A stretch of 64,000 nucleotides of DNA from Escherichia coli (GTDB taxonomy: Bacteria > Pseudomonadota > Gammaproteobacteria > Enterobacterales > Enterobacteriaceae). Below are positions 292 to 5,113 of this stretch, piece after piece. Within the stretch, counting starts at the first letter, position 1; every line of letters begins with the position of its first letter. Under the pieces are notes generated by a model. The model searched no databases, was not told the DNA's origin, and saw only the letters and a list, made by a program, of their open reading frames with translations. The stretch lies in the NCBI RefSeq assembly GCF_024502345.1, contig NZ_JALDNN010000001.1; one strand, given 5' to 3'. The position numbers were made by a program, and so were the translations under genes.

Positions 292-924
292 ATGCTCCGA
301 ATCGGGCAAGTCGAAGCCACTGCAACGCAGGATGGCAAATATACTGATGGAAGTGTTGCTGGTGGTATTGCCGCAACGAGGCTGCGGGCAGCAGCGTTTA
401 ATGCCATGCAGGAAGAGTTAGCGCATATCGTAGAGTCAGCAGGATTGGCGCTCGACATTAACGATATGACTCAGGTTTTAAAAGCCATTCAAAAACTCAC
501 ACTGAGCCGTGCAAACCCATTTGCCGATATCAAATCAGATGGTGCAGCGGCGATTTCTACGGCTCTCACAAACCTTGGATTGGGCGAAGCGGCGAAATGT
601 AACGTTGGAACTAGTGCTAACCAGATCCCCGATATGTCGTTTTTCACATATTCAAACGGTGTTTATAGATTCCCCAATGGGCTGATTCTGCAAATATTTA
701 ACAGGGTAACATCAACTACAGATACAACTACAGCATTTACTTTCCCTACGGTTTTTCCTGATTCATGCCACGGCATTTTTTCGACATATAACTCGGGGAC
801 AGCAGGTAACTACTACACGTTCAATAATGTGACTCCTGCGGGTGCAAATATGCAGGCGTTTCTCGGGTCGCCCACACCTACCAAGGGCGGCAGTACTGCA
901 ACAATAGTTGCGTTCGGGAGGTAA
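292..924 (+). CDS. phage tail-fibre-like / receptor-binding-module protein (210 aa), hypothetical
   Basis: ATG at 292 preceded by GAGGA; stop overlaps the start region of the downstream Tfa gene (TAATAATG). Size and position resemble short side-tail-fibre genes that pair with tfa in lambdoid cryptic prophages; called by context, not by recognised motif. Confidence 0.45.
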   Translation: MLRIGQVEATATQDGKYTDGSVAGGIAATRLRAAAFNAMQEELAHIVESAGLALDINDMTQVLKAIQKLTLSRANPFADIKSDGAAAISTALTNLGLGEAAKCNVGTSANQIPDMSFFTYSNGVYRFPNGLILQIFNRVTSTTDTTTAFTFPTVFPDSCHGIFSTYNSGTAGNYYTFNNVTPAGANMQAFLGSPTPTKGGSTATIVAFGR

Positions 925-926
925 TA

Positions 927-1352
927 ATGCAATACGCCTATAGCCAGTCGCAGAATCTGTTTTATGTGCGTGAGTGGGAGCGTGACTACGGGGATTCATG
1001 GCCTCAAGATTGCCTTGATGTATCCGACGAGCAATTCAGAGAGTTCAGTGTTGAGCAAGCACCTGGAAAGGTTCGCTCACCAGGTATTGATGGTCTTCCA
1101 TGCTGGATTGACGTGCCACCGCCAACGCAAGACGAATTAATCGCTATAGCTGCTGCAGAAAAACAGCGACTGATTGCTGCTGCTAACGAATTTATGAATG
1201 GGAAGCAATGGCCCGGTAAGGCGGCAATTGGTCGGCTGAAAGGCGATGAGTTGTCGCAGTACAACTTGTGGCTGGATTATCTCGACGCCCTAGAAGCGGT
1301 CGACACCTCCAGCGCACCAGATATCAACTGGCCTATTCAGCCGGAAGTGTAG
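927..1352 (+). CDS. tfa: phage tail fibre assembly protein (Tfa family)
   Basis: 141-aa product ends ...LDALEAVDTSSAPDINWPIQPEV, matching the conserved Tfa C-terminal motif (lambda Tfa ends ...VDTSTAPDIEWPAVPV). GGGAGG Shine-Dalgarno upstream. Confidence 0.75.
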   Translation: MQYAYSQSQNLFYVREWERDYGDSWPQDCLDVSDEQFREFSVEQAPGKVRSPGIDGLPCWIDVPPPTQDELIAIAAAEKQRLIAAANEFMNGKQWPGKAAIGRLKGDELSQYNLWLDYLDALEAVDTSSAPDINWPIQPEV

Positions 1353-1520: not shown

Positions 1521-1576
1521 TCAAAAATCTGGTGATGCTTCGCCGTTTCTCCTGTTTTCATAACAGGAGAAATCCC

Positions 1577-2131
1577 ATGATTTACGGTTATGCCCGAGTA
1601 TCAACAAACCACCAGGACACTGAATTGCAACTAACGGCGCTCAAGTCAGCGGGTTGTGAGAAAATTTTTGAAGAGCATGCCAGCGGGAGGAAATCGAATC
1701 GGCCGGTTCTAAAACGGCTCATCGCCACTATGCAGCCGGGGGATGAACTGGTGGTATGGAAACTAGATCGCCTCGGGCGAAGCATGCGAAATTTAGTGCT
1801 GCTGGTCGACGAACTCCGACAGCGGGGCATTCACTTTAAGAGCCTCACGGACAGCATTGATACATCAAGTCCAATGGGGCGTTTTATATTTCACATCATG
1901 TCAGCGCTGGCGGAAATGGAAAGAGAGTTAATCGTCGAACGCACCCGGGCTGGATTAGCGGCTGCGCGGGAAAAAGGGAGAATAGGTGGCAGACGTCCAA
2001 AATTAACTCCCGAGCAATGGGCACAGGCTGGGAGATTAATATTAAACGGCGTGGATAGAAAACAAGTGGCAATAATTTATGATGTCGCTGTATGCACGCT
2101 TTATAAAAAATTTCCGGTGGGGCAGGCTTAA
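1577..2131 (+). CDS. pin: site-specific DNA invertase, serine recombinase (Pin/Gin/Hin/Cin family)
   Basis: 184-aa product starting MIYGYARVSTNHQDTELQ, with the catalytic Ser in YARVST and a C-terminal HTH; AGGAGA Shine-Dalgarno 7 nt upstream. The longer ORF from 1532 is an in-frame upstream Met. Confidence 0.9.
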   Translation: MIYGYARVSTNHQDTELQLTALKSAGCEKIFEEHASGRKSNRPVLKRLIATMQPGDELVVWKLDRLGRSMRNLVLLVDELRQRGIHFKSLTDSIDTSSPMGRFIFHIMSALAEMERELIVERTRAGLAAAREKGRIGGRRPKLTPEQWAQAGRLILNGVDRKQVAIIYDVAVCTLYKKFPVGQA

Positions 2132-2173
2132 ATGATAAAAGGGCAGCTGCTAGATAGGCTGCCCGTCAAAGTA

Positions 2174-2437
2174 TTATCCATTTTGCCGGACAGTTGGAAA
2201 TTCAGACGTCAGCCACATGTCAGATTCATCAAACATTTCCTCCAGCATACGGTTCAGCTTTTCCCGATCACTTTTGCTGGCATCACTATTTAAGCCGTTC
2301 GCCTGCATCGGCTTTACCTTCACTTCGGCATCAGGAAAAATCTGGTGCACCCGCTTCGTTAGTTCAGCCAGGATGATCTCTCTGGCCCCTTGGAGTCCTT
2401 CAACATTTCGCTTGTCATAAACCAGTTCAACAAACAT
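2174..2437 (-). CDS. dinI: DinI-family DNA-damage-inducible protein (prophage-encoded)
   Basis: 87-aa product MFVELVYDKRNVEGLQGAREIILAELTKRVHQIFPDAEVKVKP...DMWLTSE matches the DinI family in length and sequence; LexA box about 60 bp upstream. Confidence 0.8.
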   Translation of the reverse strand: MFVELVYDKRNVEGLQGAREIILAELTKRVHQIFPDAEVKVKPMQANGLNSDASKSDREKLNRMLEEMFDESDMWLTSEFPTVRQNG

Positions 2438-2495
2438 ACCGATCCTCTCATAAGTGAAAATTGCCTGTGCTTGATCTGTTTTTATAAAAATACTA

Positions 2496-2511
2496 CTGTA
2501 TATGCATACAG
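2496..2511. promoter_or_regulatory. LexA (SOS) box, CTGTATATGCATACAG
   Basis: Perfect CTGT-N8-ACAG palindrome with AT-rich spacer, between the divergent dinI-like gene and the two-gene cassette. A possible sigma70 promoter (TTGATC-17-TACTGT) for the plus-strand cassette ends just upstream of the box. Confidence 0.65.
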
Positions 2512-2536
2512 TCAATAAGCGAGTGAGGGTGCGTTC

Positions 2537-2776
2537 ATGCCTCGTCAACCGGATATTCGTGCTGCTTTTATTGCGGCCATACAGCAAAACCCGAAGGGCT
2601 ATCTCTGCCTGCATACAGACAGATTCATCGCTGAACTGCAGGAGAGGCGCTGGCACTTCAGCCAGGCGGATGCAAATTCATGGATCGAACGATACCAGCC
2701 AGACTTCGCCGATAAGACGACAAACGGAAGTGAGAACCGATACTGGATCCTGCGTAACATGGGGAGGGTTTTCTAA
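2537..2776 (+). CDS. hypothetical small protein (79 aa), first gene of a coupled two-gene cassette
   Basis: ATG with GAGGG Shine-Dalgarno 7 nt upstream; stop overlaps the start of the next ORF (TAATG). Soluble, Trp-rich, no recognisable family. Confidence 0.45.
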   Translation: MPRQPDIRAAFIAAIQQNPKGYLCLHTDRFIAELQERRWHFSQADANSWIERYQPDFADKTTNGSENRYWILRNMGRVF

Positions 2777-3096
2777 TGGGGTTTCCATCGCCAGCCATGG
2801 ATTACCAGGAGCAGCGCATGACAATAGATGTTATCTGTGGTGTAGATAACAACTGCCGGGTTATTGAAACTTCATGCGGCTGGGCCGTTATAAACGTCAG
2901 TCTTAAGCCAGAAGGAGGGGATACGTTGCTGGTTAGCATGGACGGGAGAAACCAGTTCGTGAAGCTAATGGGCCACGCGCTGATCACTCAAGATGGTGAA
3001 GCGATAGAAGGGGAAGCTTTGAATGACGTAACGGTACACGGCGTTCTAACACATACACTTAACCAAGTTAAGGACGATAAATCGCCTGTAATGTAG
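2776..3096 (+). CDS. hypothetical acidic protein (106 aa), second gene of the coupled cassette
   Basis: ATG overlaps the upstream stop by 1 nt; GGGGAGGG Shine-Dalgarno upstream; followed by a hairpin terminator. No recognisable family; alternative in-frame start at 2797 (MDYQEQ). Confidence 0.45.
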   Translation: MGFPSPAMDYQEQRMTIDVICGVDNNCRVIETSCGWAVINVSLKPEGGDTLLVSMDGRNQFVKLMGHALITQDGEAIEGEALNDVTVHGVLTHTLNQVKDDKSPVM

Positions 3097-3161
3097 CGTG
3101 TAAATGTCGGGGGTTATTCCCCCATTTTTCCCCAATGATTCCCCGTACAAATTTCAAACAT

Positions 3162-3190
3162 AAAAAAACCAGCCGTAAGAGGCTGGTTTT
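3162..3190 (-). terminator. rho-independent terminator downstream of proL (probably bidirectional)
   Basis: CCAGCC-GTAAGA-GGCTGG hairpin flanked by an A-run on the plus strand and a T-run on the minus strand, directly 3' of the tRNA and 3' of the plus-strand cassette. Confidence 0.6.
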
Positions 3191-3201
3191 CAATGTGTTT
3201 T

Positions 3202-3278
3202 TGGTCGGCACGAGAGGATTTGAACCTCCGACCCCCGACACCCCATGACGGTGCGCTACCAGGCTGCGCTACGTGCCG
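3202..3278 (-). tRNA. proL: tRNA-Pro (anticodon GGG)
   Basis: Reverse complement reads CGGCACGTAGCGCAGCCTGGTAGCGCACCGTCATGGGGTGTCGGGGGTCGGAGGTTCAAATCCTCTCGTGCCGACCA: 77 nt, cloverleaf-compatible, encoded CCA end. Confidence 0.95.
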
Positions 3279-3352
3279 ACTCGTGGCTGCTAATACTACC
3301 GTTTTCCACACCGATTGCAAGTAAGATATTTCGCTAACTGATTTATAATTAA

Positions 3353-5113
3353 TCAGTTAGCGATAAAACGCTTCTCGTCTGTCAGTACTTGCAATAACAA
3401 ACTTAACTGTGGTTTTTCATCTTTCACTCTTTCACCACGTAAGTTGTAAGTGCGGTATTTACCGTTATTGTTCAGCACCAGCGTCTTTTTCGGAGTGGTA
3501 ATTGCCAGCGTATCGTTATCCGCTGCGGTAACCCAGTAATGACGGCGTTGAGGGTTGAACAAATCCTGACCTTGCGAATATTCGCTGGCAGGTGTGCTGA
3601 CATGTAGCAGGCGTTGCATCAGCGTCGTCATCAGATCGGTATGATCAGTCAGAGCATTAATACGCTGCGCCGGCGTGCCTGGCCAGTGAATCACTAATGG
3701 CACCTGCAGATGACCGTGGGACCAGTCAAAGGTTTCTTCCTCTTCGCTCAGTGGAATACCCCGAGCGGCAGTGATAATCACCACCGTATTGTCCAGTTTG
3801 CCAGAATCACGCAGTGCATTGAGCACACGGTTGATCTGGTCATCGACATTGCCTGCCGCCCGGCTATATTTCCGTGCAAATGCCTGCTGATTGCTGTCGT
3901 CAATGTTAGTACCATTGAAAGAGACCCACGAGAACCAGCGGTTATCTTCTTGTGCGTAGCGTCCCAGCCAGTTGATCCACTGCGTGGCGGTCTGCTCGTC
4001 GGATTGGGTGCGTACGCTCGGCATCGAGAAATCTGACAACAATGCCTGGCGATACAGCGGGCTGGTAAAGCCATCTGATGAGAATAACCCCAGCTGATAG
4101 CCTTGCTGATTAAGCGCAGTAATTAATGCCGCAGGCGTACGGGTCGACAGAATGCCGTCCATATAGCTCGGCGAGATGCCATAGAACAGGCCAAAGATGC
4201 CGTTGTCTGTAGTGTTGCCGGAGCTCATATGGCGCGTGAACGAAATATTTTGCTCAGCAAAACCTGCCAGCGCAGGCATCTGCTTCTCGAAGCGTGAGTA
4301 GTTCAGGCCATCGACAGTAATCAACAGCACATTCTGCCCGGTGCCCATATCGCGATAGCGCAGTTCGCTTAACGGATACTGAACGGAAACGGCGTCTGGA
4401 TTACCTTGCTCAATAAGACGGCGTTGATACTCCTGCGCATCAAGCAGGCCATGCTTCTCAAGAAAACGTCGCGCCGTCATCGGGTACGAAAGCGGCAGGT
4501 TAGCGCGCTGCATGGTGATAGGGCGATAGAAGTTGGCATCGGCCCAGATATACACCACATGCGAGGCGATAAAGGCGATAAATAAGAATGCGGCCAGCGG
4601 GCGCGCGAAGCGTCGACGACGCGTCAGGCTGCGCAGCTTTTGCCAGCTCCACGTCGCAAACACCAGTTCAAGCAATAAAATAACCGGCACGCTGATGAAC
4701 ATCAGCTGCCAGTCGCGCGCCATCTCATTTTCGTCTGGGTTGATAACCAGTTGCCAGACGATGGGATTAAGATGGAGATGGAAACGAGTAAAGACTTCGC
4801 TATCGATCAGTAATAGCGTCATTCCCGCCGTTGCCAGAATGACGGACAAAAACCTCATCAGCCTCTGGGAGCCGACGATAAAGGTCAGCGGGAAGAGGAT
4901 CAGCAAGTAGGTGGCGAACACCAGGAAGCTGAAATGGCCGATAATGCTTACGTAGGAATAAATGCGACCAGCAAGCGTGGTCGGCCAGTCGGCGATAAAC
5001 AGGTAACGGCTGCCAATGACGAGCGAAAGCAGAATATTGAACAGTGCAAACCAGTGCCCCCAACTGACCATCTGGGAGACTTTTTCACGGTAGCGCTGAC
5101 GATGAGTTACCAT
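3353..5113 (-). CDS. yejM: inner-membrane cardiolipin transport / LPS-regulation protein PbgA (YejM)
   Basis: 586-aa ORF recognised as YejM; conserved position upstream of proL. Confidence 0.9.
   Translation of the reverse strand: MVTHRQRYREKVSQMVSWGHWFALFNILLSLVIGSRYLFIADWPTTLAGRIYSYVSIIGHFSFLVFATYLLILFPLTFIVGSQRLMRFLSVILATAGMTLLLIDSEVFTRFHLHLNPIVWQLVINPDENEMARDWQLMFISVPVILLLELVFATWSWQKLRSLTRRRRFARPLAAFLFIAFIASHVVYIWADANFYRPITMQRANLPLSYPMTARRFLEKHGLLDAQEYQRRLIEQGNPDAVSVQYPLSELRYRDMGTGQNVLLITVDGLNYSRFEKQMPALAGFAEQNISFTRHMSSGNTTDNGIFGLFYGISPSYMDGILSTRTPAALITALNQQGYQLGLFSSDGFTSPLYRQALLSDFSMPSVRTQSDEQTATQWINWLGRYAQEDNRWFSWVSFNGTNIDDSNQQAFARKYSRAAGNVDDQINRVLNALRDSGKLDNTVVIITAARGIPLSEEEETFDWSHGHLQVPLVIHWPGTPAQRINALTDHTDLMTTLMQRLLHVSTPASEYSQGQDLFNPQRRHYWVTAADNDTLAITTPKKTLVLNNNGKYRTYNLRGERVKDEKPQLSLLLQVLTDEKRFIAN

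Follow-up and report, generated by a model that had tools for sequence, protein, structure and literature searches.

Background

Divergent SOS genes that share a single LexA box have been described before. In E. coli and Salmonella one box is common to uvrA and ssb; a box shared by nlhH and higB-2 is listed as well (PMC8072944). Two phage records come closer to the locus considered here. That of P1 (AF234173) annotates a 'LexA binding site in the regulatory region of lxr and humD', which are divergent genes. That of phiKO2, a linear-plasmid prophage of Klebsiella (AY374448), marks, for the DinI-like gp22 and the UmuD-like gp23 alike, a lexA binding site together with -10/-35 signals. The dinI homologues of Gifsy prophages also have a LexA box upstream and respond to DNA damage (PMC3121763, PMC8072944). 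In Salmonella, Gifsy DinI accumulates after mitomycin C, and lexA3 blocks prophage induction (PMC3121763). [quoted passage not shown]

Here we describe a related arrangement in an E. coli prophage. Near the left end of the window, by which we mean the whole stretch of 64,000 nucleotides that was analysed, a LexA-type box sits in a gap of 99 bp between a DinI-family gene on the minus strand and a bicistronic operon on the plus strand. We consider it likely that this 20-bp site is a host LexA operator placed where two divergent, overlapping sigma-70 promoters cross, and that it shuts both of them. The original prediction, made from the letters alone, was that one operator might gate two divergent SOS transcripts in a prophage. 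Promoter geometry and the comparison with relatives both argue for it, at the level of sequence. The features are collected in Table 1.

Table 1. Features at the prophage end of the window, in order of position
Feature	Position	Strand	Basis or detail
Tail fibre gene	292-924		
Tail-fibre assembly gene	927-1352		
DNA invertase gene, Gin/Pin-type	1574-2131		
Likely intrinsic terminator of the dinI-like transcript	2141-2164	-	Hairpin GGGCAGC-N10-GCTGCCC, then TTTTAT; RNAfold -13.5 kcal/mol
DinI-family gene, 87 aa	2174-2437	-	PHROG 189, NCBIfam, E. coli annotation
Predicted sigma-70 promoter, orfA-umuD'-like operon	2471-2499	+	Read from the sequence
Predicted sigma-70 promoter, dinI-like gene	2487-2515	-	Consensus scan, 9/12 matches
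Putative LexA operator (SOS box), 20-mer TACTGTATATGCATACAGTC	2494-2513	no strand	16-bp core at 2496-2511
orfA, 79 aa	2537-2776	+	Shine-Dalgarno GAGGG at 2525-2529
Short UmuD'-like gene, 106 aa	2776-3096	+	PHROG 3469, PDB profile, fold
Terminator-like hairpin	3109-3131	+	GGGGG-TTATT-CCCCC, then ATTTTT; 13 nt past the umuD'-like stop codon
tRNA-Pro(GGG), prophage attachment site	3202-3278	-	Eeyore similarity runs to 3258

The prophage end

The first 3258 or so bases of the window form the right end of a prophage of the lambdoid siphovirus type, and phage matches and gene content bear out the prophage setting that had been proposed. Phage Eeyore matches 1909-3258 at 95%, with the end of the match inside the tRNA gene. 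Over 2140-3110, Eeyore and Phi06_2987 S both match at 98-99%. Related versions of the module are present in phages mEp390, HK140, HK225 and LLS, and in free phage genomes it lies between the tail fibres and attP/int. Similarity to free phage reaches as far as 3258, which means that the 3' part of tRNA-Pro, the gene into which the prophage is integrated, comes from the phage at this junction. To the right follows ordinary E. coli chromosome, with open reading frames that resemble yejM, yejK, rplY and yejH in our reading of the translations. Nearly all E. coli genomes gave a match to the query at its tRNA side. A search of 2100-3400 for known RNA elements returned the tRNA-Pro gene and two sub-threshold matches only.

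The region that holds the tail fibre and invertase genes suggests an invertible host-range segment. In Eeyore the tail-fibre genes adjoining the invertase are turned the other way round, and its nucleotide match to the window does not begin before 1909.

The LexA box

The original prediction placed an exact CTGT-N8-ACAG with an AT-rich spacer at 2496-2511. It is there, reads CTGTATATGCATACAG and is the only such sequence in the window; its spacer is AT-rich, as in SOS boxes of the E. coli type. By itself the 16-bp pattern is within chance expectation. In 100 shuffles of the window it occurred 0.55 times on average, and at least once in 41 of them. The full 20-mer is a different matter. TACTGTATATGCATACAGTC agrees with the E. 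coli LexA consensus TACTGTATATATATACAGTA at 17 of 20 positions, with three differences, and no shuffle out of 100 contained a 20-mer as near to the consensus.

A LexA weight matrix had also been proposed as a check on the site. The box has a heterology index of 5.9, which falls within the 2.1-12.1 spanned by the training sites; these values are approximate, as is the matrix, built from a list of 32 E. coli LexA sites. The second-best site of the 64-kb window scores 12.0, so none is comparable to the box. The distances to the flanking genes, predicted as about 60 and 26 bp, are about right: from the core it is 58 nt to the ATG of the dinI-like gene (2437, minus strand) and 25 nt to that of orfA (2537).

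Two predicted overlapping promoters

The plus-strand promoter of the original prediction can be read as described in its elements, with a -35 of TTGATC at 2471-2476, a 17-bp spacer and a -10 of TACTGT at 2494-2499, from which a start at about 2506 would follow. It does not, however, end upstream of the box. TACTGT forms the left arm of the 20-bp site and has 4 nt in common with the start of the 16-bp core. This promoter falls under the threshold of the consensus scan because TACTGT matches the consensus at 3 of 6 positions only. The scan did find a minus-strand promoter in the gap that had been missed earlier, and it is the only promoter-like site of the gap to pass. It consists of a -35 of TTGACT at 2515-2510, 17 bp, and a -10 of TATTTT at 2492-2487, with a start that we infer at about 2480.

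On the plus strand the box thus spans the predicted -10 and start. On the minus strand it covers the predicted -35 and spacer, its right arm overlapping TTGACT and the remainder of it filling the spacer. With such shared geometry the predicted promoters overlap almost completely on opposite strands. They have 2480-2506 in common, and their putative starts are about 26 bp apart. Since the box covers core elements of both promoters, one bound LexA dimer should block both.

The following course of events can be proposed. A LexA dimer on 2494-2513 would keep RNA polymerase off both promoters. Upon DNA damage, RecA-stimulated self-cleavage of LexA would release both transcripts together. One would be a monocistronic dinI-like mRNA running from about 2480 down to about 2140. 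The other would be a bicistronic, translationally coupled orfA-umuD'-like mRNA from about 2506 to about 3130. By homology, their products would act on the RecA filament and on Pol V. As DinI, LexA and UmuD share the RecA groove, it is plausible that both transcripts would serve to bring phage proteins to RecA filaments or to Pol V.

The DinI-family gene

The dinI-like gene lies on the minus strand, as originally proposed, and has a Shine-Dalgarno sequence GAGAGGA at 2449-2443. Its product matches PHROG 189 ('RecA filament binding protein DinI') over the full length (E 4.5e-21), and E. coli genomes annotate it as 'DinI family protein'. With the NCBIfam DinI model NF007893 it scores 37.9 bits, under the equivalog cut-off of 111 bits; it is a phage paralogue and not the orthologue of chromosomal DinI. 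The protein ends in an acidic helix, EEMFDESDMWLTSE, which resembles the C-terminus of E. coli DinI, ...ETWESADDWFVSE. The terminator hairpin behind the gene was missed by the terminator scan because its loop is 10 nt long. A GTG-initiated ORF of 160 aa can be drawn at 2174-2656 of the window, and the DinI CDS in the Eeyore record is likewise extended upstream through the operator.

orfA and a short UmuD'-like protein

The plus-strand operon had been called an unknown cassette. A cassette it is, but not a wholly unknown one, for its second gene encodes a homologue of UmuD' and HumD. The 106-aa product matches PHROG 3469 ('UmuD-like') with an E of 1e-47, and a profile of its family matches PDB entries 8GMT, 1UMU and 1I4V with E values from 4e-13 to 4e-12. 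The alignment of the family profile to UmuD/UmuD' in the PDB starts exactly at the post-cleavage residue G25 (GFPSPAxDY). The protein itself begins MGFPSPA, its start corresponding to UmuD G25, and M1, G2, F3, S5, P6, A7 and D9 are invariant across the family. A structure model (pLDDT 76) has the S24 beta-fold, and its top Foldseek matches are the UmuD' structures 1UMU and 1AY9 (TM 0.63-0.64). These matches indicate that the protein is a UmuD' homologue made in 'pre-cleaved' form.

It is a shortened one. The loop that bears Ser60 in UmuD is an alignment gap in all 19 short sequences (about 105-112 aa). Lysine is frequent, but not invariant, at the position of UmuD Lys97, and the 106-aa protein does not have the Ser60/Lys97 catalytic dyad of UmuD. 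An already-cleaved UmuD' has no need of catalysis. Aligned with a 129-aa HumD-like relative (67% identical to P1 HumD), which retains the Ser60 loop, the protein shows a gap of ten columns over that loop and a second gap of 13 columns. HumD itself reportedly complements UmuD'. The NCBIfam HumD model NF051876 matches residues 1-22 only and gives 33.6 bits, which does not reach the equivalog cut-off of 120 bits. Short proteins of this type form about 190 clusters in Enterobacterales, mostly of about 105-106 aa and without the Ser60 loop. They have a conserved motif, ITxDGEAIEGEAL, that is absent from UmuD' and HumD, and most are annotated 'hypothetical protein'.

The stop codon of orfA overlaps the next start (TAATG at 2774-2778), which couples orfA to the UmuD'-like gene. 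Family searches (PHROG, NCBIfam) gave orfA no name, and Pfam had no significant match for either orfA or the 106-aa protein. The structure model of orfA suggests a winged-helix-like fold of the DNA-binding type, in which the third helix, at the recognition position (residues 43-53, QADANSWIERY), is predicted to have few basic residues. We also considered orfA as a homologue of P1 Lxr or as an antirepressor of the Gifsy type. Neither assignment finds support; Lxr has 190 aa and is encoded on the opposite strand. The records of mEp390 (3374-3502) and Eeyore (3315-3425) omit orfA and call a short ORF on the opposite strand instead.

The pairing of orfA with the short UmuD' is kept across six genera. 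orfA may also precede a full-length HumD-type gene instead of the short form, as in HK140 and one viral contig (L060), and P1, N15 and phiKO2 do without it. PADLOC gave no match to a defence family for the DinI-like, orfA or UmuD'-like protein, and our literature search found no paper on the pair of orfA and short UmuD'.

Conservation among relatives

The comparison covered 160 viral contigs that encode relatives of orfA or of the DinI-like protein, and 11 phage records in which the relatives of orfA are more distant. Among 74 distinct regions upstream of orfA, the box is found in 72, and the other two are split by an insertion sequence. Its half-sites are conserved, with variation concentrated at the central positions 11-12. 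Among 69 distinct variants of the dinI-orfA intergenic region, conservation peaks at TTGATC, at AAAAATAC-TACTGTAT..ATACAGTCAAT and at the Shine-Dalgarno sequence of orfA, while the box varies at its centre, as does the remainder of the spacer.

TTGATN stands 17 bp before the box in all 61 dinI-linked variants. Of the 11 unlinked ones, 8 have it at that distance and two more at 18 bp, which makes 71 of 72 variants overall. The exception, in Erwinia phage Midgardsormr38, is a distant cassette without any TTGANN at 16-18 bp before the box. Among the 61 dinI-linked variants, 58 have C at box position 20. This departs from the LexA consensus and completes the dinI -35, TTGACT. Where the cassette stands alone, position 20 is A in 10 of 11 variants and C in one.

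Cassettes without dinI were found in six genera, in comparisons that reach down to 32% identity of the orfA protein, and they keep the promoter together with a LexA box beginning 31-41 nt upstream of the ATG. Among these cassettes are those of Enterobacter phage LAU1, several Klebsiella phages, two Erwinia phages, Cronobacter phiES15, Pantoea AH07 and metagenomic viral contigs. Conversely, 12 of 14 distinct regions (with sequence) upstream of dinI genes that lack the cassette have LexA boxes of their own, different from this one and often beside a TTGACA-like -35; the other two have no LexA box within 200 bp. Close relatives are not independent samples, so the counts overstate the evidence, and the comparison across genera is its stronger part. 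The whole pattern is what would be expected if two independently LexA-controlled units had fused head to head onto one operator.

Several individual loci deserve mention. In one contig (L026), unrelated sequence stands in place of dinI upstream of 2501, and the box, CACTGCATATACATACAGCC, is altered at an otherwise invariant position, with orfA and the umuD'-like gene still present. Six dinI-only loci (L086, L087, L103, L134, L145 and L154) have two tandem LexA boxes beside a consensus TTGACA, for example CACTGTGATTGCATACAGTA and TACTGTAAAAATAAACAGTG, a layout unlike the single shared box here.

Mobile elements have entered the operator in some relatives. An insertion sequence of the ISL3 family (transposase of 406 aa, NCBIfam 323.7 bits) lies exactly in the AT-rich centre of the box in three contigs (L003, L165 and L059, in the last at about 1104-2460). 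In L059 an 8-bp duplication, ATATAAAT, stands on either side of it, the arrangement being TACTGT-ATATAAAT|IS|ATATAAAT-ACAGTC. Such an insertion splits the operator and parts both promoters from their partners. A group II intron (Rfam RF02005, 183.5 bits) is found directly after ACAGT of the cassette box in Klebsiella phage ST15-VIM1phi2.1 (L177/L166), with the junction ...TTGATC-N17-TACTGTATATAAAAACAGT|GTGCG... and a reverse transcriptase ORF oriented as orfA. This position puts the intron in the 5' leader of the transcript that LexA is predicted to control, and the intron would then home to the operator sequence itself. E. coli phage vB_EcoS-733R5, examined on the 3' side only, probably carries the same intron insertion.

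Alternative explanations

It might be argued that the palindrome is no LexA site at all but a product of chance, a crossover site of the invertase, or the operator of some phage protein, for instance orfA. A CTGT-N8-ACAG is, after all, expected about once in two such windows, the invertase gene is 360 bp away, and orfA is predicted to have a fold of the DNA-binding type. We regard this explanation as extremely improbable. We reject chance in view of the shuffles of the 20-mer and its retention across genera. A crossover site we reject in view of the presence of the box in mEp390, LAU1, N15 and P1, which have no invertase at this position; to our knowledge the box is also unlike crossover sites of the gix/hix type. 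The main ligand cannot be orfA, since the box is kept in P1, N15 and phiKO2 where orfA is absent, and the modelled recognition helix, poor in basic residues, likewise argues against it. A more serious objection accepts LexA and holds that only one unit is under its control, for example the orfA-umuD'-like operon, of which the box spans the -10 and start, with dinI read from a promoter that LexA leaves free, or the reverse. The box always accompanies the cassette, even without dinI; the plus -10 is weak, so that the promoters may differ greatly in strength; and divergent promoters that overlap exclude simultaneous occupation, so that one could dominate. Against this, the sole promoter of the gap that passes the scan is that of dinI, whose -35 and spacer are inside the LexA site. 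The C of position 20, which gives TTGACT, is nearly confined to variants linked to dinI, most dinI paralogues elsewhere have a LexA box beside a TTGACA-like -35, and the phiKO2 and P1 records each assign one site region to both divergent genes. Control of a single unit is in our opinion unlikely.

It is also conceivable that LexA binds but that a product of the cassette feeds back on the same region, on LexA or on RecA, which would make a phage-tuned circuit out of a plain SOS switch. Such feedback would resemble that of phage GIL01 gp7 with LexA, or of Acinetobacter DdrR with UmuDAb. Here a small protein of predicted winged-helix-like fold is translationally coupled to a serine-less protein of the UmuD fold, and the pairing is conserved in six genera. 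As a small protein combined with a UmuD-like one, the pair brings to mind DdrR/UmuDAb (PMC11332147). We would nevertheless give such feedback little chance, far less than simple control of both promoters by LexA. A related suggestion concerns the products rather than the operator. orfA and the UmuD' without serine loop, a pair retained across lambdoid phages of Enterobacterales, might form an undescribed, SOS-triggered decoy or modulator module of the phage, as opposed to a simple mutagenesis aid of the HumD type. Its targets could be the RecA filament groove, host UmuD/UmuD'/UmuC, or LexA itself. This suggestion is speculative; we put it forward tentatively and hold it to be rather unlikely.

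Implications

With joint control of both promoters by LexA as the preferred reading, the locus would be a well-supported prophage addition to the SOS regulon of E. coli. Its design would be compact, with one LexA dimer shutting two divergent overlapping promoters, and this design recurs wherever phages have genes of the DinI-like and HumD-like kinds. As a lead, the cargo is more useful. It comprises short serine-less UmuD' proteins, a family usually paired with an uncharacterised protein of 79 aa and widespread in prophages of Enterobacterales. As the pair is predicted to be expressed exactly when RecA filaments form, it could affect mutagenesis, the outcome of antibiotic-induced SOS or prophage induction in lysogens. 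If the tentative decoy or modulator function is real, a single LexA dimer would release three phage proteins, the DinI-like one included, that jointly alter how the host responds to damage or when the prophage is induced.

Comparison with known systems

One of the closest counterparts is phiKO2. As here, a DinI-like gene and a UmuD-like gene diverge after the tail-fibre region, and gp23 has a start of the UmuD' type, (GTG)GFP, like that of the short UmuD'-like protein. A strong box, TACTGTATGCATATACAGTA, lies in its gap. phiKO2 differs in having two adjacent box-like sequences instead of one and a gap of 77 bp instead of 99 bp. It has no orfA, so its box directly precedes a full-length HumD-type gene of 127 aa, unlike the arrangement here.

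P1 shares with this locus an annotated LexA site between divergent genes and a UmuD homologue, HumD, that is made already cleaved. It has no orfA, and the divergent partner is Lxr (190 aa), not a homologue of DinI. Its HumD has 129 aa, and the HumD-type relative that we aligned keeps the loop missing from the 106-aa protein. Upstream of gene 26 of N15 the elements are TTGCAT, 17 bp and TACTGT, again with a box.

The Gifsy prophages resemble the present one in having a dinI homologue under LexA control, predicted in our case, in a lambdoid setting. There, however, dinI is first in an operon with an antirepressor (GfoA/GftA) needed for induction. Here it is predicted to be monocistronic, ending at a terminator that faces the invertase gene, and no antirepressor homologue was identified. 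In the uvrA/ssb case the genes are chromosomal repair genes, and the box lies 80 and 24 nt from the start codons as against 58 and 25 nt here. Given phiKO2, P1 and the precedents for shared boxes, the regulatory design is already known in kind, and the locus is a clean but ordinary example of a shared LexA operator.
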